Positions 37,337-63,773 of a stretch of DNA of 64,000 nt are shown here, piece by piece; position 1 is the first letter of the stretch; every line of letters begins with the position of its first letter. The notes below the pieces were generated by a model. The model saw nothing but the letters and a program-made list of their open reading frames with translations. It did no database searches and was not told the origin of the DNA. The DNA lies in NCBI GenBank assembly GCA_030390025.1, contig JASTWF010000337.1, positions 310,001-374,000 of the forward strand, given 5' to 3'. Source of the DNA: Squalus acanthias (lineage: Eukaryota). The translations under genes were made by a program, and so were the position numbers.

Positions 37337-37459
37337 CTCAGTTCACACTTGATCTGGACCCAGCCAGGACTGCGTAGGAACGACCAGGGCTGGTACCATT
37401 TCTCCACTGTCTGCATACTCGAACAGAGCACCTCCAGCCACAGCGGCAGAACCTGCTCA
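37337..37459 (-). CDS. SGSM3: SGSM3 RUN-domain exon: (N)[40 protein letters not shown](R)
   Basis: cctttgtgcag acceptor, GAG|gtaagg donor; 123 nt, phase 2 to 2; [24 protein letters not shown] motif. Confidence 0.97.
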
Positions 37460-39982: not shown

Positions 39983-40068
39983 TTTAGTCCCACACAGATC
40001 AGTGATCGGAATTTCACATCCATCTGTGCATGCGCAGCATCGTGACTCATGTTCACGGACTGGACAGC
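39983..40068 (-). CDS. SGSM3: SGSM3 exon: [28 protein letters not shown](N)
   Basis: cccttctttcag acceptor, AAA|gtaagt donor; 86 nt, phase 0 to 2. Confidence 0.96.
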
Positions 40069-48168: not shown

Positions 48169-48217
48169 TCTGTACAGAAGTTCCTCAGGAGTCAGCACCT
48201 TCCCGTCTTCATCCAAC
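48169..48217 (-). CDS. SGSM3: SGSM3 exon: (R)LDEDGKVLTPEELLYR
   Basis: ttcctttttacag acceptor, AGA|gtgagt donor; 49 nt, phase 2 to 0. Confidence 0.96.
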
Positions 48218-48328
48218 CTGTAAAAAGGAACCTTCATTAACCGATGGATTCCGAGCATTCAATTACGGGAAATAACCACCAACTGCACAGTACCTGCTGG
48301 GATTCACCAGCTTGTACAGCACCTGGTA

Positions 48329-49466
48329 CCTCTACATTGCCCCATCAAACACTCCCAGGGCAGGTACAGCATGGGTTAGATACAGAGTAAAGCTCCCTCT
48401 ACACTGTCCTGACAAAGACTCCCAGGGCAGGTACAGCACGGGTTAGATACAGAGTAAAGCTCCCTCTACACTGTCCCATCAAACACTCCCAGGGTAGGTA
48501 CAGCACGAGTTAGATACAAAGTAAAGCTCCCTCTACACTGTCCCATCAAACACTCCCAGGGCAGGTACAGCACGGGTTAGATACAGAGTAAAGCTCTCGC
48601 TACACTGCCCCATCAAACACTCCCAGGGCAAGTACAGCACGGGTTGATACAGAGTAAAGCTCCCTCTACATTGTCCCATCAAATACTCCCAGGGCAGGTA
48701 CAGCACGGGTTAGATACAGAGTAAAGCTCTCGCTACACTGCCCCATCAAACACTCCCAGGGCAAGTACAGCACGGGTTGATACAGAGTAAAGCTCCCTCT
48801 ACATTGTCCCATCAAATACTCCCAGGGCAGGTACAGCACGGGTTAGATACAGAGTAAAGCTCCGTCTACACTGCCCCATCAAACACTCCCAATGCAGGTA
48901 CAGCACGGGTTAGATACAGAGTAAAGCTCCCTCTACACTGTCCCATCAAACACTCCCAGGGCAGGTACAGCATGGGTTAGATACAGAGTAAAGCACCCTC
49001 TACACTGTCCCATCAAATACTCCCAGGGCAAGTATAGCACGGGTTAGATACAGAGTAAAGCTCCCTCTACACTGTCCCATCAAACACTCCCAGGGCAGGT
49101 ACAGCACGAGTTAGATACAGAGTAAAGCTCCCTCTACACTGTCCCATCAAACACTCCCAGGGCAGGTATAACATTGGTTAGATACAGAGTAAAGCTCCCT
49201 CTACACTGTCCCATCAAACACTCCCAGGGCAGGTACAGCACGGGTTAGATACAGAGTAAAGCTCCCTCTACACTGTCCCATCAAACACTCCCAGGGCAGG
49301 TACAGGACGGGTTAGATACAGAGTAAAGCTCCCTCTACACTGTCCCATCAAACACTCCCAGGGCAGGTACAGCACGGGTTAAAGACAGAGTAAAGCTCCC
49401 TCTACAGTGTCCCATCAAACACTCCCAGGGCAGGTACAGCACGGGTTAGATACAGAGTAAAGCGCC
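48329..49466. repeat. 67-bp tandem repeat, left arm (about 17 copies)
   Basis: Unit CCCATCAAACACTCCCAGGGCAGGTACAGCACGGGTTAGATACAGAGTAAAGCTCCCTCTACACTGT. Confidence 0.97.
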
Positions 49467-50007
49467 CGTTAAAATAGTGACCATTTCTAGTTGACCATCT
49501 TCCCATCAGACCCTGCCTGTGTACAGCAAGTTAAAATGTCCTTGTGACGTGCTGGCTCTTGACGTTCAAGCTGAGCTTACAGATAACAGGTTTTCTTTGG
49601 GAACAGACTGAGCTTGTAGCTGCAAGAACCAGACACTTACAGATAATAGATGGATAACAACAAGATACGGTCAGGGACAAGGCCAGTATGTTTGTAATTA
49701 GAGATCGACTTATTGGGTATAATTATAGGACGAGTGGTCAGTGGTTGTTCGAGCTCTCAAGACAATCGGAAGTAGCGCAGCCTAGTGACGGAGGTCGAGC
49801 TAATCACCTTGAAGTCCGCGGGGAAACCAGGTTGTATTAATTGCATGTCATTTAATGTAATTCTGTAGAACAGTTGTATAAGAACAATAATGTTATTAGT
49901 CAATATATATTAAAGCTTGTTGTTTAAAACCATTCGGGCCAGAGTTTTTGTTGCAGGTCTAACAACCCTTTATTGCTACAGTAACCACGGAAAGAAATCC
50001 ACTAACA
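49467..50007 (+). repeat. 5' LTR (541 bp)
   Basis: CGTTAAAATAGTGACC...CACTAACA; by eye 9 substitutions and 2 single-base indels versus the 3' LTR. Confidence 0.95.
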
Positions 50008-50008
50008 C

Positions 50009-50026
50009 TGGCGGCCCTTGGTGGAC
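50009..50026 (+). promoter_or_regulatory. Primer-binding site, tRNA-Asn-like
   Basis: TGGCGGCCCTTGGTGGAC, 1 nt after the LTR; 15/18 match to TGGCGTCCCTGGGTGGGC, the complement of the vertebrate tRNA-Asn 3' end as recalled. Confidence 0.7.
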
Positions 50027-50639
50027 TGGAGTTAAAGGTTTAAAAATAGGCGAACATAAAGGGAAAAGGGGACCAATTGGTTGTGACCGAGTTATTGAAA
50101 GGTAGCCAACCCCTCGAGCATAAACACGTGGAAGGATCGGTAGGGTCGTGCACACCCTTGGTAGGGGAAGCAGAAAACCTAGGCAGTCTGAGTGAAAGTG
50201 AGTGTGAATGTGTGAAAGTTTACTGACCTATGAATGTTTAACAGAGCTAAAAGCAGTTCAACTCTCTGTAGTCTTGTCTTTGATTAAAATGCCTAAAATA
50301 CTTTCAACATTAATGTCTTTTCTACAAGTATATGCTGTTTTAAACTTGCTAATTGTTTTCTCTATGTATGTATACACATGTGGATTATTTTTGAGATGCT
50401 TTGAATCATGTTTTTGGTCTTGAACTGATTTAAAGGGTGTGAATGTTCCTTGGGATCGTGACCAGGGAATACAATGTAAACATTTGGCACTTTGAGTTCC
50501 TAACCCATTACACGGATCAGTATTTCCAAGGAGCATGATAGTGTGAATATCGTTGTTGAGTATGTTCATTTCAATTTAAGATTGTGTGCCTGAACTGGGG
50601 AAAACTTTGTGATTTACATTTTAAGTTAAAGGTACTGGT

Positions 50640-52870
50640 TGGAGCTGCACTCCAGGCAAGTGGAGAGTGTTCCATCACACTCCTGACTTGTGCCTTGTAG
50701 ATGGTGGAAAGGCTTTGGGAGTCAGGAGGTGAGACATTCGCTGCAGAACACCCTGCTCTTGTTGCCACAGTATTTATGTGGCTGGTCCAGTTAAGTTTCT
50801 GGTCAATGGTGACCCCCAGGATGTTGATGGTGGGGGATTCGGCGATGGTAATGCTGTTGAATGTCAAGGGACGGTAGTTAGACTCTCGCTTGTTGGAGAT
50901 AGTCATTGCCTGGCACTTGTGTAGTGCGAATGTTACTTGCCACTTATCAGCCCAAGCCTGAATGTCGTTCAGGTCGTGCTGCATGCGGGCATGGACTGCT
51001 TCATTATGTGAGGAGTTGCGAATGGAACTGAACACTGTGCAATCATCAGCGAACATCCCCACTTCTGACCTTATGATGGAGGGAAGGTCATTGATGAAGC
51101 AGCTGAAGATGGTTGGGCCTGGGACACTGCCCTAAGGAACTCCTGCAGTGATGTCCTGGGGCTGAGATGATTGACCTCCAACAACCACAACCATCTTCCT
51201 TTGTGCTAGGTATGACTCCAGCCAGTGGAGAGTTTTCCCCCTGATTCCATTGACTTGAGTTTTACTAGGGCTCCTTGATGCCACACTCGGTCAAATGCTG
51301 CCTTGTTGTCAAGGGCAGTCACTCTCACCTCACCTCTGGAATTCAGCTCTTTTGTCCATGTTTGGACCAAGGCTGTAATGAGGTTGGGAGCTGAGTGGTC
51401 CTGGCGGAACCCGAACTGAGCATTGGCGAGTAAATGCTGCTTGATGACACTGTCAATGACACCTTCCGTCACTTTGCTGATGATTGAGGGTAGACTCATG
51501 GGGCGGTAGTTGGCTGGGTTGGATTTGTCCTGCCTTTTGTGGACAGGACATACCTGGGAAATTTTCCATTTTGTCAGATAGATGCCAGTGTTGTAGCTGT
51601 ACTCGAACAGCTTGGCTAGAGGCACGGCTAGTTCTGGAGCATAAGTCTTCAGCACGACAGCCGGGATGTGTCGGGGCCCATAGCCTTTGCTGTAGTCAGT
51701 GCACTCAGCCATTTCTTGATATCACGTGGAGTGAATCGAATTGGCTGAAGACTGGCTTCTGTGATGGTGAGGTCCTCAGAAGGAGGCCGATATGGATCAT
51801 CCACTCGGCACTTCTGGCTGAAGATGTTGCAAACGCTTCAGCCTTGTCTTCTGCACTCGCGTGCTGGGCTCCACCATCATTGAGGATGGGGATGTTCATG
51901 GAGCCGCCTCCTCCTCCCGTTAGTTGTTTAATGGTCCACCACCATTCACAACTGGATGTGGCAGGACTGCAGAGCATTGATCTGATCAGCTGATTGCAGG
52001 ATCGCTTAGCTTTGTCTATAGCATGCTGCCTCTGCTGTTTAGCATGCATACAGTCCTGAGTTGCAGCTTCCCCAGGTTGACACCTCATTTTTAGGGACAC
52101 CTGGTGCTGCTCCTGGCATGTTCTTCTGCACTCCTCATTGAACCAGGGCTGGTTCCCTGGCTTGATGATAATGGTAGAGTGAGGGATTTGTGTCAGCCAT
52201 TGCCAAGTTGGCAGCACCCTTGCCTCTGAATCAGAAGGTTGTGGGTTGAAATCCCACTCCAGGGACTTGAGCACAATAATCGAGGCCAACATTCCAGTGC
52301 CATCTTTCGGTGGGACAGGACATACCCAGGGATGGTGATGGAGGAGTCTGGGACACTGGCTGAAAGTTATGATTCTGTGAGTATGACTATGTCAGGCTGT
52401 TGCTTGACTAGTCTGTGGGACAGCTCTCCAAATTTTGGCACAAGTCCCCAGATGTTAGTGAGGAGGACTTTGCAGGGTCGACTGGGCTGGGTGTGCCGTT
52501 GTCGTGTCCGAATCCGGTGCCGAGATTGAAGCCGGGTGGTCCGTCCGGTTTTATGCTTATTATTGTTTTTCATAGTGGTTTTTTACAACTGGGTGGCTCA
52601 TTAGGCCATTTCAGAGGGCAGTTCAGAGTCAACCACATTGCTGTGGGTCTGGAGTCACACAGACCAGATAAGGACGGCAGATTTCCTTCCCATTAGTGAA
52701 CCAGATGGGTTTTTACGACAATCCGATAGTTTCATGGTTACCATTATTGATACTAGCTTTTTATTCCAGATTTATTTAATTAACTGAATTTAAATTCCCC
52801 AGCTGCTGTGGTGGGATTTGAACTCATGTCTCTGGATCATTAGTCCAGGCCTCTGGATTACTAGTCCCGT
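50640..52870 (-). mobile_element. CR1-group LINE (APE and RT relic) with a tRNA/SINE-like 5' head
   Basis: KVLLTNIWGL...PDIVILTES, PWFNEEC, NPANYRPMSL, AAFDRVWH, MFADD; head at about 52600-52870 contains GAGTTCAAATCCC. Confidence 0.85.
52190..52310 (+). mobile_element. tRNA-derived SINE fragment (DeuSINE/SacSINE1-like)
   Basis: GCAGCACCCTTGCCTCTGAATCAGAAGGTTGTGGGTTGAAATCCCACTCCAG; same family as 61445-61595. Confidence 0.7.
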
Positions 52871-52874
52871 AAAC

Positions 52875-53160
52875 ACAGGATTTTTTTTAACTTGTCCCAT
52901 TGCCATCTCCTTTTGCCTGCACCATCATCCCTTTTGTCTCCCAATCTCTCCTGCCTTCCATCCTATCACAGACCATCCCTTTTGTTCTTTCCTCCCCTCC
53001 CCCCTTTCCCTGCCCCTACACTTGCTTAAAAACCTGTTCCATCTCCAACTTTTTCCAGTTCTGACGAAGGGTCATCGACCAGAAACGTCAACTCTGTTTC
53101 TCTCTCCACAGATGCTGCCTGACCTGCTGAGTATATCCACCATTTTCTGTTTTTATTACA
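52875..53160 (+). mobile_element. Penelope-like element terminal fragment
   Basis: Pyrimidine-rich tract, hammerhead motif, then CCACAGATGCTGCCTGACCTGCTGAG tail related to 40236-40340 (inverted) and 47750-47850. Confidence 0.65.
53057..53093 (+). ncRNA. Minimal type I hammerhead ribozyme
   Basis: AGTT-CTGACGA-AG-GGTC(ATC)GACC-A-GAAAC-GTC-AACT: stem I AGTT/AACT, both catalytic boxes, stem II GGTC/GACC, palindromic ACGT stem III, GUC cleavage triplet. Confidence 0.75.
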
Positions 53161-53898
53161 AGTTACAGTTGCTGGTATAGATCAATTTGAATGTCTCCAA
53201 AGCACCTTGTTTTAATTGGATAACAGCTATAAAGATTGCTATCGCTTTATACAGTTTAAATTAAAGATGTGTGGTCTTGTTTTAAATCAATTCGAATGTT
53301 TACAAAGCACTGTTTTCTTCATTTGGTTACTCGAAGTCTGAGACTTGCTATTGTGATTGACTCCGCCCCCACCCAGGTAATCAGTAATCAGAATTTGTAA
53401 ACTGGGCTGAGAGAAAATGCACCAAGTTAATCTATGATGGAATAAAGGAGAGAGGGAAAGATTCTTCCCCTTTTCTACTGTCACAAGCTGCAGGAGATCT
53501 TTTGTTTCCACCGTACTGTCTCGAAGAGCCTGTGTGAATGTTTCAGAGCCCACAAGCTGTGGGAGGTTCCACCATTAACCCTTTTGTGTAGAAATGTTAC
53601 AAAGATTTTGTTTAGATCTGAATACTAATATTTTCTTCAGTTATATTCAGTTTTTAGTCCTTTGAAGAAATAACAAAAAAAATGTAATTTTCTGGGTTTT
53701 GTAAGCATGTGCTATTTTGATATTTTTATCTGTTGTGCAGTATGTTTAGTTAATAAAATATTGGCCTGAATTAAATTGGAACTATTGAGGTTAACTAATC
53801 TATTAAATTGTGAAAACCAGATTTTCATTATGGCCAGTGAAATTCTGATTACTGTAAATTATCTGTGATTCTATGTGGAGGTATCTGATGTGATGAGA

Positions 53899-56848
53899 GG
53901 AAGAGGTAAACGAATATGATATGATTGGGATTACAGAAACATGGCTCCAGGGTGACCAAGGCTGGGAACTCAACATCCAGGGGTATTCAATATTCAGGAA
54001 AGATAGGCAAAAAGGAAAAGGAGGTGGGGTAGCATTGCTGGTTAAAGAGGGGATTAACACAATTGTAAGGAAGGATATTAGCTCTGATGATGTGGAATCT
54101 GTATGGGTAGAACTGAGAAATACCAAGGGGCAGAAAACGTTAGTGGGAGTGGTATACAGACCCCCAAACAGTAATGCGGAGGTTGGGGATGGCATTAAAT
54201 GGGAAATTAGAGAAGCATACAATAATGGTACAGCAGTTATCATGGGTGACTTTAATCTACATATAGATTGGGCTAACTAAATTAGTAACAGTACTGTGGA
54301 GGAGGAATTCCTGGAGTGTATACAGGACAGTTTCCTGGACCAATATGTCGAGGAACCAACTAGAGATCAGGCCATCTTAGACTGGGTATTATGTAACGAG
54401 AAAGGATTAATTAGCAATCTTGTTGTGCGAGGCCCCTTGGGTCGAAGCGATCATAATATGATAGAATTCTTCATTAAAATGGAGAATGAAGTAGTTGACT
54501 CGGAGACTAGGGTCCTGAATTTAAATAAAGGAAACTACGATGGTATGAGGCGCGAGTTGGGTAGGATTGATTGGGGAATGTTACTCAAAGGGCTGACGGT
54601 GGATAGGCAATGGCAAACATTCAAAGATCGCATGGATGAACTGCAGAATTTGTTCATCCCAGTTTGGCATAAAAATAAAACAAAAAAGGTGACTCAACCG
54701 TGGCTAACAAGGGAAATTAGGAATAGCATAAGATCCAAGGAGAGGACATATAAATTGGTCAGAAAAAGCAGTAAACCTGAGGATTGGGAGCAGTTTAGGA
54801 TTCAGCAAAGGAGGACAAAGGGATTAATTAAGAGGGGGAAAATAGAGTATGAGAGTAAACTTGCAGGGAACATAAAAACTGACTGTAAAAGCTTTTATAG
54901 ATATGTGAAGAGAAAAAGATTGGTGAAGTCAAACGTAGGTCCCTTGCAGTCAGAATCAGGGGAATTTATAATGGGGAACAAAGAAATGGCAGACCAATTA
55001 AATACATACTTTGGTTCTGTCTTCACAAAGGAGGACATAAATAACCTCCCAGAGATGTCAGGGAACATAGGGTCTAATGAGAGGGAGGAACTGAAAGAAA
55101 TCAGTATTTGTAGGGAAATGGTGTTAGCGAAATTGACGGGATTGAAGGCCGATAAATCCCCAGGGCCTGATAATCTACATCCTAGGGTACTTAAGGAAGT
55201 GGCTCTAGAAATAGTAGATGCATTGCTGGTCATCTACCAAAATTCGATAGATTCTGGAACGGTACCCATGGATTGGAGGGTAGCTAATGTTACCCCACTA
55301 TTCAAAAAAGGTGGTAGAGAGAAAACGGGGAATTATAGACCGATAAGCCTGACATCGGTAGTGGGGAAAATGCTAGAGTCCATTATAAAAGATGTAATAG
55401 CAGAGCACTTGGAAAACAGTGACAGGATCGGACAAAGTCAACATGGATTTACAAAAAGGTAAATCATGCTTGACTAATCTGCTGGAATTTTTTGAAGATG
55501 TAACTGGTAAAATAGATAAGGGAGAACCAGTGGATGTGGTGTATTTGGACTTTCAGAAGGCTTTCGATAAGGTCCCACATAAGAGATTAGCGTGTAAAGT
55601 TAAGGCACATGGGATTGGGGGCAAGGTATTGACTTGGATAGAGAACTGGTTGGCAGACAGAAGGCAAAGAGTTGGAATAAACGGGTCTTTTTCCGAGTGG
55701 CAGGCAGTGACTAGTGGGGTACCGCAGGGATCGGTCCTAGGACCCCAGCTATTCACAATATATATTAATGATCTAGACGAGGGAACTAGATGTAATATCT
55801 CCAAGTTCGCAGACGACACAAAGCTGGGTGGGCGTGTGTGCTGTGAGGAGGATGCCGAAAAACTCCAGCATGATTTGGACAGGTTGGGTGATTGGGCAGA
55901 ATCATGGCAGATGCATTATAATGTGGATAAATGCGAGGTTATCCACTTTGGTGTCAAAAACGGGAAGGCAGATTATTATCTGAATAGCAATAGATTGGGA
56001 GAAGGGGAAGTGCAACGAGACCTGGGTGTCCTTGTGCACCAGTCGCTGAAGGTAAGCATGCAGGTGCAGCAGGCGGTTAAGAAGGCAAATGGTATGTTGG
56101 CCTTCGTAGCGAGAGGGTTCGAATACAGGAACAAGGATGTCTTGCTGCAGTTGTACAGGGTACTGAGTTTAGATGATCAGCCATGATCTCATCGAATGGC
56201 GGAGCAGGCTCGAGGGGCCGAATGGCCTACTCCTGCTCCTATCTTCTATGTTTCTATGTCTATGTACAGGGCCTTGGTGAGACCACACCTTCAGTATTGT
56301 GTGCAGTTTTGGTCGCCTTATCTGAGGAAGGATGTTCTTGCCATGGAGGGAGTGCAGCGAAGATTCACCAGGCTGATACCTGGGATGGCAGGAATGACGT
56401 ATGAGGAGAGATTGGGTCGATTGGGCTTATACTCGCTGGAGTTTAGAAGAATGAGAGGGGATCTCATTGAAACTTATAAAATTCTAACAGGACTAGACAG
56501 ACTAGATGCAGGAAGGATGTTCCCGATGGTTGGGGAGTCCAGAACCAGGGGTCACAGTCTAGGGATAAGGGGTAAGCCATTTCGGACAGAGATGAGGAGG
56601 AATTTCTTCACCCAGAGAGTGGTGAACCTGTGGAATTCTCTACCACAGAAGGCAGTGAAGGACAATTCAATAAATATATTCAAGAAGGAGTTCGATATAT
56701 TTCTTAAGGCTAAAGGGATCAAGGGATATGGGGAAAAGGCAGGGACAGGGTAATGAATTTGGATGATCAGCCATGATCTCATTGAATGGCAGAGCAGGCT
56801 CGAGGGGCCGAATGGCCTACTCCTGCTCCTATCTTCTATGTTTCTATG
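53899..56848 (+). mobile_element. Relatively well-preserved CR1 LINE ORF2 (APE, RT, 3' tail), 5'-truncated
   Basis: GITETW, GDFN, SDHN, QGSVLGP, FADDTK; open stretches of 388 and 255 aa; TTCTATG tail; possible ATGAGA TSD (53893-98 and 56846-51). Confidence 0.96.
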
Positions 56849-57499
56849 AGACGATCACAGTTCAAAAATTGCTAGTTTTGAATTTCTTAAATGTTTAATG
56901 ATTTGAAGTGGATGAGATGTTAATGTTGAGTGTAATTGACGTGGTTTTGTGCCTTTAAGATTTTGGGACATTTGAGGTGATTCTGCTTGTTTAATCACCT
57001 TGGTTGTATTGGAATGTGATAGCGGTCAGTAGACTGACAGCACCTTTAGATCATGTGACTGACTGGTCAGAAAAAAGTACCGGGAAGAACAAGAATGATT
57101 AAAGGATCTCCTGCTATCTCTATGACACCAATATGGAAAAATCTTGTGGTTGGACACCAAATGCTTTGAAAACAATTGGAGTTTAATTTGGAAAAATAAA
57201 AAGGCTGTCTTTCCTGATGAAAATGTTTTTGAAAAGCTAATAGTGACGTAACTAATGATTTCTGCTGTTTTAACGGATTTTCAAATCCTAATGATGGAAA
57301 ACAAAACGTTCGGTAGGATCTCTGTGCAAGTTTTAAAGGTACAAAGACTTTGGAAAAAAAACAAAATGGAGTTTGGCTCTTTTTCAGTCGGCAAAGTTTA
57401 AAAAAATGTGAAGTAACGCAAGTCCACGCGTCTGACGATATCTTCTGATAAAACATGCAAAGACGTTAACCCTTTCCACCGGCAGCTGTTTTTAATTCA

Positions 57500-58240
57500 C
57501 CAAAACGTCTTTTGTGTTGCTGAATGTAAATATATATCCTGGGCATTATTAAATTTAAAGTTTCTTAATTTAAGTGGGTACGTCGCCATGGTGATAGAAG
57601 GAAATCATGAATTGGCAAATTAACCCGTTGGGCTCTCTTATTTAAGAGCCGCAATGGATTCTCTGTTTTTTTTCAAAAGAGTTTTCTGGACTCTATGAAT
57701 GTTGAGGGCGTAGCAAGGGATCCAGCAGTTTTAAGAATTTAACACCTTATCCGCAGACAGCAGCAGATATCAAATGTCACAGCGTGGCAACGATCTGGAC
57801 TAAGACTTTGCCTTTCCAAAGATTCGGCATTAACCCATTCAGGGTCGTTTGTTATGTTCCAAGACAGAGTGCTTGTGGGTGTTGGTGGGGGCGGGGGGGG
57901 AGGGGGTGGCGAATGTGGGAGTTACCTCCAAAACTAATTGCAAAGCACTTCTGTCTCCAATGTAAAACCACCAAGCCTGGGCATCATTTGTTTCTGAAAT
58001 TGGAACATAGAAGATAAATTGATCTGAGTTGCTGTTACACTCACGCACTCAAGAAGGGAAATTTTACCTGAAGTTTAAGGGGACGATCACATATTTTTTT
58101 TAAAAGAATGCAATCTAGGTGGTTCCTGCCCAGTGCTGTGTATCAAGAAAAAAGATCCTTTGGAGAAATAAAATTGAACATTGACAAGTACTGTCAGTCC
58201 AACAACACTGCTCTTTGGATTTGCGATAATTGTGAAATGA
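57500..58240 (+). pseudogene. Decayed pol relics of the LTR element (RNase H/tether-like, then integrase zinc-finger-like)
   Basis: VFCVAECKY/YILGIIKFKVS*FKWV...IGKLTRWALLF resembles Ty3/gypsy-type RNase H; KRMQSRWFLP...IKLNIDKYCQS...CDNC resembles the integrase HHCC region. By-eye motif similarity only. Confidence 0.45.
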
Positions 58241-58329
58241 CAAAATGGAGTCAGGCACAATATAGCGGGTTATTTTGGAAAATAAAAGGCCCAAGAGACG
58301 GTTCGGTTAAGTAAAATAAACAAACTTGC

Positions 58330-60240
58330 TGTACCTGCATGTTAACTTTCTGTGATTCATGTACAAGTACACTCAGGTCCCTCTGAGTGCAAACATTTCC
58401 CAGTCTCTCACCATTCAAAAAATATTCTGCTTTTTGTCTTTCCTATCAAAGTGGATAACTTGACACTTCCCCACATTGTATTCTATTTGCCATGTTCTTG
58501 CCCACTCAGTCAACCTGTCTATATCTCTCTGCAGTCTCTTTGCATCCTCCTCACAGCTTACTTTACCACCTAACTTTGTATCAGCAGCAAACTTGGATAC
58601 GTTACACTCAGTCCCTTCATCGAAGTCATTAATATAGATTGTAAATAGCTGAGGCCCAAGCACTGATCCCTGTGGCACCCCGCTAGTTACAGCCTGCCAA
58701 CCGGAAAAAGTTCCGTTTATTCCTACTCTGTTTTCTGTCCATTAACCAATCCTCAATCCATGCTAATATATTACTCCCAATCACGAGTCCTAATTTTGTG
58801 TAATAACCTTATCGAATGCTTTTTGAAAATCCAAATACACTACATCAACTGGTTCCCCCTTATCCATCCTACCAGTTACATCTTCAAAAAAATCTAACAG
58901 ATTTGTCAAACATGATTTCCCTTTCTCTGCCTAATCATATTATGATTTCTAAGTGCCCTGTTACCACGTCCCTAATAATAGATTCGAGCATTTTGCCTAC
59001 TACTGATGTCAAGCTAACTGGCCTATAGTTCCCCGTTTTTTCTCTTCCTCCTTTCTTAAATAGCAGGGTTATGTTTGCTACCTTCCAATCCTTGGGGACT
59101 GTTCTAGAATCTAGGGAATTTTGGAAAATTGATACCAATGCATCCACTATTTCTGCAGCTACCTCTTTTAAAATCCTAGGATGCAGGTCGCCAGGTCCAG
59201 GGGATTTGTCGCCACTTAGTACTGGAGAAATTAATGGGACTATGTCTTTACTTATACTGATTTCTTTAAATTCCTCATTCTCTCTAGACCCTTGGTTCCC
59301 CACTATTTCCAGAATGTTTTTTGTGTCTTCTAGCATGAAGTCAGATACAAAGTATTTGTTTAATGTCTCTGCCATTTCCTTATATGCCCATTATAATTTC
59401 TCCTGTCTTTGCCTCTAACGGGCCCACGTTTACTTTAACTAATCTCTTCCTATTTACATACTTATAGAAACGGTTACAATCTGCTTTTATGTCTCTTGCT
59501 AATTTACTCTCATATTCTTTTTTCTCTTTCCTGATCAATTTCTTGGTCCTCCTTTGTTGAATTCTAAAATCCTCCCAATCCTTACTACTCTTTTTGGCAA
59601 CATTATAAGCCTCTTCCTTTGATCTAATACTATCTTTAACTTCACTTGTTAGCCACGGTTGGACCACTTTTCCTGTGGGGCTTTTGTGCCTTAAAGGAAT
59701 GTATATTTGTTGTAAATTATGTATTAATTTTTTAAATGCTAGCCATTGCTCATCTACCGTCATACATTTTAATGTAGTTTCCCAATCTACCTTAGCCAAC
59801 TCGCCCCTCATACCTACGTAGTTTGCTTTGTTTAGATTTAAGACCCTAGTTTCAGAGTTAACTAAATCACTTTCAAACTCAATATAAAATTCTATCATAT
59901 TATGGTCACTCTTCCCTAAGGGCCCCTTTACTACAAGGTTATTAAATAACCCTTTCTCATTGCACAATAGTAGATCTAAAATAGCCTGTTCCCTAGTTGG
60001 TTCCTTAACATACTGATCTAGAAAACTATCTTGTATACATTCCATGAACTCGTCCTCCATACTATTACTGCAAATTTGGTTTGCCCAGTCTATATGTAGA
60101 TTAAAGTCCCTCATGATTACTGTATTACCCTTGTTACATGCGCCTCTAATTTCCTGATTTATACTTTGCCCTACATTACAACTACTGTTTGGGGACCTAT
60201 AAACAACTCCCATCAATGTTTTCTGCCCCTTGCTGTTTGT
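58330..60240 (-). mobile_element. CR1 LINE ORF2 fragments with deletions
   Basis: GKSDHNMIEF, PWLTSEVKDSIR, DKSPGPGDLHPRILKE, PQGSVLGPQLF. Confidence 0.92.
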
Positions 60241-60500
60241 TATGGCACGGATATGTGGTCGGAAGCTCATTTCAGGGTCAAATATGTCACCAAGGTTGTG
60301 AACAGTCTAGTTCAGCCTCAGACAGATGCCAGGGAGAGGGATGGAGTCGGTGGCTAGGGAACGGAGTTTGTGGCGGGGACTGAAGAAAATGGCTTTGGTC
60401 TTCCCAATATTTAATTGGAGAAAATTTCTGCTCATCCAGAACTGGATGTCAGACAAGCAATTTAGAGACAGTGGAGGGGTCAAGAGAGGTGGTGGTGAGG
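60240..60500 (-). mobile_element. L2 LINE internal fragment
   Basis: Homologous to 41200-41450 (GGAGAGGGATGGAGTCGGTGGCTAGGGAACGGAGTTTGTG is shared). Confidence 0.85.
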
Positions 60501-60567
60501 TAATAATGGGTGAATTAGAATCAATCCAAAGGGGTTAGGGAAAAGATGTGTGAGGGCACCCATGAGT

Positions 60568-60715
60568 AACATAACATAAGAACATAAGAAATAGGAGCAG
60601 GAGTAGGCCATTTGGCCCCTCGAGCCTGCTCCACCATTTAATGAGATCATGGCTGATCTGATCTTGGGCTCAGCTCCATTTTCCTGTCCGCTCCCCATAA
60701 CCCATCACTCCCTTA
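60568..60715 (-). mobile_element. Short CR1 3'-tail insertion
   Basis: (AACATAAG) microsatellite tail plus reverse complement of the CR1 3' UTR seen at 56760-56848. Confidence 0.85.
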
Positions 60716-62405
60716 TTTGCAACAAAAAAAAATCTGGGAAAATTCCTCTGCCACCCATCTAGGCGATCGAACCAGGAGATCACTCTGGCCCTTTTGCATA
60801 GACTGCCCCCTTGTCCTGATTCTTATCTCATGGATCAGGAGTTGTGCATGCTTTATGCTGTGGCAATGCTGGTTAGAGGCATCTTGGGACCAAATAAACA
60901 CCAGAAACAATGGGTTTTGATTCAACACCCTCTCTCTTTGCCTTCTCCAAATCGACTGGCTTCCCCTGTAACATACACCTAAAGGTGTGGGTCTCCGCCT
61001 CAACCTCCCTTCTTAGTAACGTGTATAGATTTGTTCTCTGCAAAGAAATAATTGCAGAGGCCTGTCTTAATTATGCCTTTCACAATGCTGAATCTGCACC
61101 CACTTGTGCTGCGATTCTGATATGTTTCAGGTTTTTGGGATCTCTGTATCTAGTCATTGGACAAGGTTTGGAGGCTACCCACCAGAAGGCTTGGAATTTT
61201 GATTTGAATCCAGCTGTTGCTTAAATGGATCAGGTGAAAGCTCCCGAACTACAATTGGATCATTTGACTCCACAAATATCGACTGCATAAATACAGGTGC
61301 AAGAAACCACTTTATCTAAACCATATCTTGTGCTGTAGCAACAATTCCAAACCTCTGCTCACTTGTGTTTGTGATACAGGTGAACACCAGTTTGGAATTG
61401 TTCACAGCAATTAAGTGTACAATGGGTCTCAGAACTAAAATAGTTAGCTGTGGCTCTGTGGGCAGCACTCTCGCCTCCGAGTCAGAAGGCCGCGGGTTCA
61501 AGTCCCACTCCAGAGACCCGAGCACAAAAATCCAGGCTGACACCCCAGTGCAGTGCCGAGGGAGTGTTGCATGGTCAGAGGTGCCCTCTTTCAGGTAACT
61601 TAAATCATCTGGGTACAATTCACCAAGAGTTATCAATCTGGTATCAATGTATATTCTAGTGAAAGCCAGGAAATTGTAAGTGTGACAGGTTAATTGATAG
61701 CTTTCTCCTGGAGATTTTTGTGTCCTTGCCTATACTGAACAATAAGGAAACTGCATTTGAGAGCATGGCCACTATCGAGACATAAGCAAAGACCTCCACA
61801 CCGCACCCCCGATCTTTTAATAAGATAACCTGAAATGTCCAAGAAAGGTTTGCATCTGATGTCACGTGTGGCATGATCTTGGGATGTGTGTGTGCAAATG
61901 TGATAAGTTACATGTGAGGCAACTAGCATGCGGAAATGCTCAGTTACTTGACAATAGCACAACATGAAATGGTTAATGTGGCTCAGGAGAGTGAGAAAAC
62001 CTTTAATCAAGGCACTGACATATGTTTCATAGAGAAACCAACCTTTTTATGAAACAATCAGGATAGAGTTAAACACAGAGGGATTGAAATTGAAGTAAAG
62101 AGGGACATAGAATTTGGATTTACGAAATCCGTGGGTTGGGTTCCTTTGAGTTAACAATGAAATTGGAACAATTGAGGGCTAGGGAGAAATAATACTTTGC
62201 AAGAATTATCCACAAAATGGATAAGGGTAAAGGGAGTGCTGAGAATCTTTGAAGTCCATGATTTCTCGATAATATGGGACACTGTAGCTTTCTGTACAAT
62301 GTATTATGATCTTCTCTGTCTGGATCATGATGTGTAGTATTGGGCAAATGAGACTTGGATTAGTGATCACGTACATGCTGCTTGGACAAGCCCTTAAAAA
62401 CTGAA
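60716..62405 (+). pseudogene. Possible decayed env-like gene of the LTR element
   Basis: Lies just upstream of the PPT; RTRR|SL furin-like site (about 60768-60785), LLEIFVSLPIL, Cys cluster DVTCGMILGCVC, hydrophobic LSVQCIMIFSVWIMMCSIG..LGLVITYMLLG (62288-62390); many stops and frameshifts. Confidence 0.35.
61445..61595 (+). mobile_element. tRNA-derived SINE (DeuSINE/SacSINE1-like), 3'-truncated
   Basis: A-box-like TGGCTCTGTGGG, B box GGGTTCAAGTCCC, then AAAATCCAGGCTGACACCCCAGTGCAGTGCCGAGGGAGTG. Confidence 0.75.
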
Positions 62406-62635
62406 GAGGGAAACAGATCCCGGTTAGAGGAGAGCTCTATCAAATATGCTGTGTAAAGGACGATTACCAACAGCTGAAATAAAAGGGGCTCGTTGGCACA
62501 ATATGTATATGGTACGTTTGTTTGTGTGAATGTAACATCAACCGACTGTAAACTCAAGGTGATCTAAGGTGAGGCCAGAAAGGAAATTCACGGGTAAAAG
62601 TGAAAGTCGACCCAGTGTGGTTCCAACTCAGGTTC

Positions 62636-62647
62636 AAAAGGAGGGAA
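62636..62647 (+). promoter_or_regulatory. Polypurine tract AAAAGGAGGGAA
   Basis: All-purine run directly abutting the 3' LTR. Confidence 0.85.
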
Positions 62648-63186
62648 TATTAGAATAGTGACCATTTCTAGTTGACCATCTTCCCATCAGACCCTGCCTG
62701 TGTACAGCAAGTTAAAATGTCCTTGTGACGTGCTGGCTCTTGACGTTCGAGCTGAGCTTACAGATAACAGGTTTTCTTTGGGAACAGACTGAGCTTGTAG
62801 CTGCAAGAACCAGACACTTACAGATAATAGATGGATAACAACAAGATACGGTCAGGGACAAGGCCAGTATGTTTGTAATTAGAGACCGACTTATTGGGTA
62901 TAATTATAGGACGAGTGGTCAGTGGTTGTTCGAGCTCTCAAGACAATCGGAAGTAGCGCAGCCTAGTGACGGAGGGCGAGCTAATCACCTTGAAGTCCGC
63001 GGGGAAACCAGGTTGTATTAATTGCATGTCATTTAATGTAATACTGTAGAACAGTTGTATAAGAACAATAATGTTATTAGTCAATATATATTAAAGCTTG
63101 TTGTTTAAAACCATTCGGCCAGAGTTTTTGTTGCAGGTCTAACAACCCTTTATTGCTACAGTAACCGCGGAAAAAATCCGCTAACA
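62648..63186 (+). repeat. 3' LTR (539 bp)
   Basis: TATTAGAATAGTGACC...CGCTAACA; the two LTRs imply ancestral termini TGTTAG...CTAACA. Confidence 0.95.
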
Positions 63187-63664
63187 GATCCCTCTACACT
63201 GTCCCATCAAACACTCCCAGGGCAGGTACAGCACGGGGTTAGATACAGAGTAAAGCTCCCTCTACACTGTCCCATCAAACTCTTCCAGGGCAGGTACAGC
63301 ACGGGTTAGATACAGAGTAAAGCTCCCTCTACACTGTCCCATCAAACACTCCCAGGGCAGGTACAGCACGGGTTAGATACAGAGTAAAGCTCCCTCTACA
63401 CTGTCCCATCAAACACTCCCAGGGCAGGTGCAGCACAGGTTAGATACAGAGTAAAGCTCCCTCTACACTGTCCCATCAAACACTCCCAGGTCAGGTACAG
63501 TATGGGTTAGATACAGAGTAAAGCTCCCTCTACACTGTCCCATCAAACACTCCCAGGGCAGGTACAGCATGGGTTAGATACAGAGTAAAGCTCCCTCTAC
63601 ACTGTCCCATCAAACACTCCCAGGGCAGGTACAGCACGGGGTTAGATACAGAGTTAAACTCCCT
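63187..63664. repeat. 67-bp tandem repeat, right arm (about 7 copies)
   Basis: Resumes in register with the unit broken at 49466. Confidence 0.97.
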
Positions 63665-63702
63665 AAAACAAATTCTAACTCGTGAAAAACAGCAGAATGT
63701 AC

Positions 63703-63773
63703 CTGTATGTTTTACACAGCACTAGTCGAGAATACACCGAGTCGAAGTCTCGTTCCACCTCCTTACCAGCAGC
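63703..63773 (-). CDS. SGSM3: SGSM3 exon: [23 protein letters not shown](R); gene continues past the right edge
   Basis: cttatttcatag acceptor, CAG|gtacat donor; 71 nt, phase 0 to 2, joins the 48217 exon in frame. Confidence 0.95.

Follow-up and report, generated by a model that had tools for sequence, protein, structure and literature searches.

A non-autonomous LTR family of Squalus acanthias with a tRNA-Asn primer-binding site and a decayed envelope relic of probable F type, likely copied in trans by a retrovirus

Introduction

Non-autonomous long terminal repeat (LTR) elements, of which MaLR-like elements and LARD are examples, are the class with which the element described here is best compared. 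In this study, we analysed a 64,000-nucleotide stretch of the genome of the shark Squalus acanthias (assembly GCA_030390025.1, contig JASTWF010000337.1, forward-strand positions 310,001-374,000; hereafter the window), which holds at 49467-63186 an element of 13.7 kb with two LTRs, a tRNA-Asn primer-binding site (PBS) and an interior shared by a family of dispersed copies (the window family). Endogenous retrovirus (ERV) derivatives that retain only signals acting in cis have been described (PMC8672886; here and below, statements on cited papers refer to the portions available to us), and the window family shares with them LTRs, a PBS, a polypurine tract, a target-site duplication (TSD), the lack of pol, dispersed copies and solo LTRs, but keeps a dead F-type envelope (env) gene and not a gag remnant, and uses an Asn primer. 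Lokiretroviruses carry an F-type env, as the window family probably does, and their gag-pol-env order and two RNase H-type regions recur in a second family of the same genome, which we call family P (PMC7947760; PMC9040795); in contrast to lokiretroviruses, the window family has no pol, and the reverse transcriptase (RT) of family P falls on the retrovirus side of the tree. The available main text of PMC7947760 makes no mention of sharks, cartilaginous fish or a primer. An Asn primer is known from the newt foamy-like ERVs NviFLERV-1 as well as NviFLERV-2 and from a galago foamy virus (PMC5512871); the tRNA-Asn PBS is common to them and the window family, although priming by Lys or Asn is a trait that is not specific to the foamy group. 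The LTRs of foamy elements measure about 950-1700 nt (PMC6669660), as opposed to ~540-580 nt here, and the Gag of family P, unlike that of foamy viruses, has a CCHC knuckle and its protease is of the retropepsin type. A basal retrovirus lineage related to the snakehead retrovirus is represented in cartilaginous fish by CmiERV lineage I of the elephant shark (PMC4422223). Our literature searches listed no description of the window family or of an Asn-primed shark element with an F-type env, the supplements of PMC7947760 and PMC5512871 and repeat libraries lying outside the scope of this survey.

We report that the window element is probably a member of an old non-autonomous LTR family in which retroviral cis-signals and a defunct F-type env persist while gag and pol are undetectable. 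The family was likely copied in trans by a related Asn-primed retrovirus, and the LTRs of this copy were likely homogenized afterwards by gene conversion.

Results and discussion

Structure and copies of the element

The element is bounded by direct repeats of 541 nt (5' LTR, 49467-50007) and 539 nt (3' LTR, 62648-63186) on the plus strand, which alignment shows to differ at 11 positions. One nucleotide past the left LTR lies the PBS (50009-50026, plus strand), 15 of whose 18 nt correspond to the 3' end, including CCA, of the tRNA-Asn(GTT) gene of the host; the agreement is 18/18 in sister copies, and the genome contains the exact Asn 18-mer 14 times (reversed control, 0). In one family copy (L244, 1501-1550) the PBS extends for ~50 nt as the complement of tRNA-Asn through the anticodon arm, which likely reflects read-through into the primer during reverse transcription. 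The polypurine tract AAAAGGAGGGAA (62636-62647, plus strand) adjoins the 3' LTR. An initial annotation, made from the letters of the window alone, had proposed this repeat pair of about 540 bp, the Asn-like PBS and the tract, all of which were borne out by the comparison with the genome. It had also proposed TGTTAG...CTAACA ends and a 5-bp TSD, and these hold for the family and not for the window copy. The sister LTRs start with TGTTAG and end with CTAACA, whereas the LTRs in the window start with CGTTAA (left) and TATTAG (right). The flanking pentamers GCGCC (49462-49466) and GATCC (63187-63191) agree at only 3/5 positions, each being one change away from the GCTCC of the tandem-array unit into which the element was inserted; among eight solo LTRs with both ends (11 LTRs were listed, three of them not solo and set aside), three have a perfect 5-bp duplication and three have one mismatch. 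Foamy viruses duplicate 4 bp. The hallmarks of a non-autonomous LTR/ERV element, TG...CA ends, PBS, tract and TSD, are thus all present, with ends and TSD decayed here and intact in sister copies.

Searching the genome with the LTR, as the initial annotation had suggested, gave 49 matches (40 scored candidates of 594), among them a duplicate of the whole element on the same contig and dispersed copies 71-91% alike. No RNA was among the holders listed. The family is old and dispersed, with at least 40 loci and copies 65-85% alike. Across 40 mapped stretches a single collinear interior was found, whose parts in the window, all on the plus strand, are A (leader, 50008-50640), B (AT-rich, 53160-53865), C (56850-58325), D0 (60500-60574, contiguous with 61595 in other copies) and E (61595-62647). 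Mapping and stop counts mark A and B as non-coding, and no Pol, Gag or Env similarity was detected in C. The interior amounts to 3,943 nt in the window copy, less than the ~5 kb first estimated, and to ~4.2 kb in the family, a median of ~250 nt separating C from E in other copies (n = 23). The remaining 8.7 kb of the window element consists of nested insertions.

The env relic and the loss of coding capacity

On the similarity of its translation, a genuine env relic, probably of the F type (paramyxovirus-fusion-like), stands at 61.6-62.35 kb: it occupies 61606-62350 on the plus strand, is frame-broken and runs from a Cys-rich ectodomain to a predicted transmembrane region. An env profile of 54-71 rows, none of them from the family, found 29-34 domains on the plus strand of E at independent E-values (iE) below 5, the best being 1e-5, in collinear order along env positions 456-645. 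Among the controls, one such domain came from reversed and 1-3 from shuffled sequences, none under 0.1. With env homologues from other sources as tblastn queries, 37 of 38 matches fell on the plus strand of E (best 2e-6; reversed, 0). Cys motifs are family-wide, a CKCD-type motif occurring in 20/33 copies and CGN in 30/43, and Atlas features, as one source of evidence, place the env near the Gypsy env, Baculo_F and Fusion_gly clusters (0.91-0.95). The named env homologues that come nearest point to a cartilaginous fish as host. The env is confirmed at the family level only, for about 61606-62350; of the env first annotated at 60.7-62.4 kb, this part stands, and the candidate at 60.7-61.4 kb was rejected as it lies in a private insertion (60575-61594).

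No trace of gag or pol was recovered. Five Pol and Gag profiles built from elements of the host genome gave no domain at iE < 0.1 when 201 pieces were read in six frames (of 210 pieces, the 9 belonging to a Leu-primed family were left out), and tblastn with eight Gag, Pol and Env probes from the host genome against the 210 pieces gave no match at E < 0.1 (reversed control, 2), a test too blunt to weigh heavily, for the env relic itself emerged only with nearer or more probes. Two relics that the initial annotation had read in retroviral order fell away: the RNase H-like relic near 57.5 kb contains no Pol profile domain, and the residues of the integrase zinc-finger-like relic near 58.1 kb are private to the window copy, with the CxxC (~58.2 kb) present in 0/22 and the HxxxH in 2/25 of the other copies. 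Near 58.29 kb lies a basic motif resembling a furin site, a weak lead; it was seen in 5/23 or 2/17 copies in two counts, and the env profile is silent there.

Stop codons present in at least half of the copies were scored as shared. They occur at chance density in every plus phase of A, B, C and E; in E the three phases have 20/20/21 shared stops in 280 codons (20.9 expected) and in C 19/30/18 in 380 codons (28.3 expected). The pol of family P, as a positive control, has 28/0/29 in 572 codons. The template that spread was already non-coding, because stops common to most copies occupy all three frames. The env was a pseudogene while the family spread, and the family is therefore non-autonomous.

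Family P and other relatives

Family P, reached through the PBS search, comprises ~15 copies that are 83-91% alike and all broken in the stretches read. Its interior of ~8 kb contains a zinc knuckle and a protease of the retropepsin type, together with RT, RNase H and integrase domains; its env is homologous to the probe, and its sequence can be aligned over the tether region of a Pol with dual RNase H. Family P has in common with the window family the exact Asn PBS, a similar start of the leader, the LTR start TGTTAGAA and a similar tract. The likeness extends to a 200-nt block of the LTR, in which the LTR profile matches 7/8 P stretches (E 1e-14 to 1e-18), 0/6 stretches of three other coding families and no reversed sequence. 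On this evidence family P is a relative and a plausible helper; as the two interiors share no DNA similarity, it is proven neither as parent nor as helper.

The RT tree that had been called for was built for family P only, since the window family has no RT. Among its 41 rows, chosen from 93 and without labelled loki, foamy or snakehead rows, support of 100/100 divides the P RT from the Gypsy rows with a single RNase H, and support of 90/98 unites it with frog, coelacanth and gamma-like rows in a group that leaves out an unlabelled eel element; a quick tree of all 93 rows agrees with this placement. No spuma protease, Gag or Env family of Pfam was matched by family P or the probes. Judged by these domains, family P shows no foamy marks, and the window element, which has no pol, cannot be filed with either the foamy viruses or the lokiretroviruses. 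The initial choice between an env-bearing Ty3/gypsy element and a basal retrovirus thus survives in part: the element is Asn-primed, env-derived and of basal-retrovirus type, not an ordinary Gypsy or BEL element, while pol relics and, in family P, foamy marks did not hold.

The tree also bears on whether the parent was instead a lokiretrovirus or an env-bearing Ty3/Gypsy element and not a lineage on the side of the canonical retroviruses, which we regard as unlikely. The F-type env and the tether plus RNase H are published marks of lokiretroviruses (PMC7947760), invertebrate Gypsy elements carry an F-type env as well (PMC13524379), and the window family has no RT by which it could be placed; the P RT, however, is split from the Gypsy rows and grouped with gamma-like rows at the support values given above. 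A bolder interpretation, in which the window family and family P together form an undescribed Asn-primed retrovirus lineage of cartilaginous fish on the canonical side with an F-type env, and the dead env/leader block has become a portable cis module, retained by the window family and acquired by two or more further LTR families whose LTRs and primers differ, is offered tentatively and as rather doubtful.

The size of the P interior is also relevant to the idea that the window element is what remains of a complete provirus in which pol and env degenerated where they stood, in retroviral order. The order LTR-PBS-...-env relic-tract-LTR and the reality of the env relic agree with such a history. 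It is nevertheless largely refuted, and we hold it to be very improbable: the interior is ~4.2 kb in all mapped copies whereas that of family P measures ~8 kb, neither Pol nor Gag gave a signal though the faster-evolving env was detected, the zinc-finger residues are private and the stops are family-wide.

Pieces of the window-family interior, rearranged, occur in two other LTR families. In one, a younger family (L188, L186, L190, L198, L235-L238) with another LTR, a gag, a protease and an RT stub, the pieces (65-85% alike) are followed by the terminal part of an F-type env in better condition; its primer site is presumably of the Leu type, and it was rejected as an LTR relative on account of its different LTR. 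In the other (L274, L275; also L247, L249, L255), a different gag precedes the same interior block and env end, with the exact Asn PBS 18-mer in antisense orientation between gag and block. Near-identical copies at L252-L257 and L259-L267 have an Asn PBS, an LTR related to positions 24-369 of the window-family LTR profile and a C-terminal env piece directly upstream of the LTR; this younger Asn-primed family was rejected as a helper, since five 20-kb stretches showed no pol. Another family, young, env-bearing and of high copy number (L187, L231-L234; 92/92 scored matches), has RT, RNase H and integrase domains and served here as a probe. In one family-P copy (L271:5140-8740) the start of gag is split by a DNA-transposon-like insertion, which we take to be a Harbinger element from its motifs.

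LTR identity and age

The window LTRs are 98% identical, with 11 differences where 75-108 would be expected; family copies deviate by a median of 10% from the column majority and the window copy by 7-12%. Of the eight LTR differences common to the element and its duplicate, seven lie within the outer 78 nt (p about 1e-5). This high identity likely reflects gene conversion between the LTRs and not youth, because the differences are few relative to expectation and cluster at the edges, the TSD and the TG starts have decayed and the full-length control LTR pair is far less alike (77%). Five further 5' LTRs have no partner within their stretch. Conversion between LTRs is a known effect, and as in the described cases the nested elements here are older than the LTR pair would suggest (PMC7251063; PMC4921805); in the present case, by contrast, the effect is about tenfold and the edges were left unconverted. 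Contigs of three other organisms cover LTR, PBS and leader at ~94-96% and are thereby closer than every long match to a paralogue in this genome; one of them differs at 16-17 of ~301 nt from both LTRs, which differ from each other by 3.

Since reverse transcription regenerates identical LTRs, recent retrotransposition of the whole 13.7-kb composite together with its cargo would account for the 98% identity. We consider this highly improbable: the TSD agrees at 3/5 positions, the TG starts have decayed differently, the differences cluster at the edges, no donor locus carries the same cargo other than the duplicate with the same flanks, and there are probable orthologues, 94-96% alike, in the three other organisms.

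The duplicate takes in the whole element with its flanks and part of the host gene region; it lies ~77 kb downstream on the same contig (G000:C2638:436393-450116) and is 98.8-99.6% alike. The least credible proposal is that assembly or polishing on an unplaced contig produced the LTR identity or else the second copy as an artefact, for although a single contig of 525 kb, rich in satellites, holds the two copies and their 3' LTRs are identical, their 5' LTRs differ at 5 sites and their interiors by 0.4-1.2%, and a merging of LTRs 80% alike would not be expected.

Proposed origin and significance

We propose that an env-bearing basal retrovirus would have lost gag and pol, by deletion or through a spliced RNA, after which its env would have decayed. 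Proteins of family P or of one of its relatives would then have packaged the LTR-to-LTR RNA of the template that spread, already non-coding to judge from the shared stops, reverse-transcribed it from a tRNA-Asn primer and inserted the product with a 5-bp duplication. After insertion into the tandem array, the window copy grew from ~5.3 to 13.7 kb through insertions of long and short interspersed elements (LINEs and SINEs) and one captured piece. Ectopic gene conversion would have rewritten the core of the LTRs and spared their edges, and the region, as the two copies ~77 kb apart indicate, was duplicated on the contig.

Several observations weigh against parts of this account. As regards the helper, the interiors of the window family and family P have no DNA similarity, and the env relic scores best against homologues from outside family P. 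As regards the env, Pfam finds nothing real on 30 frames of the interior, the env alignment finds no F match in Pfam or PDB, the window copy shows three env pieces in order (61851-62350) whose iE of 0.5-1.6 is not significant alone, and tblastn gave a further diagonal, with E aligned to RT, that also recurred in 11-13 loci, so that this test is weak by itself. About 2.8 kb of the interior (A, B, C) is without explanation and could hide relics too decayed to detect. As regards the age, the 77% pair is the only full-length control of the family and hence a single one, two short control pairs are 88% and 91% alike over 57 and 103 nt, and the contigs of the other organisms are called probable orthologues from their identity and not from unique flanks.

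The family would be an old fossil of F-type envelopes on retrovirus-side elements and bears on their confinement to lokiretroviruses, as stated in PMC9040795. It also provides a warning case, as dating by LTR divergence would make the insertion about ten times too young, and the recurrence of the decayed env block in LTR families that are not related is a hint of a function in cis. No principle is overturned by these results.

Nested insertions and the host locus

Compared with their closest relatives among the sequences sampled, the nested elements are 88-96% alike. They comprise a LINE fragment with an RT domain and short repeats foreign to the family (50641-53159, minus strand), a LINE with endonuclease and RT (53876-56848, plus strand), which we take to be of the CR1 type from its tail, and LINE pieces at a site where ~150-200 nt of family interior are missing (58340-60499, minus strand). 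The private insertion at 60575-61594 (minus strand, GTAAC on both sides) joins a LINE 3' tail to a low-copy genomic piece in antisense orientation (counterpart stretch L146). It is absent from 40/40 stretches examined and, besides the duplicate, one locus (C17) matches it, at 81% over ~900 columns; it is likely a retrocopy from that locus made by template switching or read-through.

The element interrupts an array of 67-bp tandem repeats (48329-49466, resuming at 63189-63664) inside the intron at 48218-63702 of a minus-strand RUN-domain gene. Exons lie upstream (63703-63773) and downstream (48169-48217) of the intron, with RUN-domain exons further on at 39985-40068 and 37339-37458. The antisense orientation relative to SGSM3 in the initial annotation is confirmed as to the intron and the strand, and the gene is presumably SGSM3. 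A protein labelled 'Niban 1-like' (P0002) is env-like over its first 250 residues, through either a gene-model fusion or exaptation. At the other end of the window, positions 1-30118 hold ~30 kb of a 19-bp tandem satellite.

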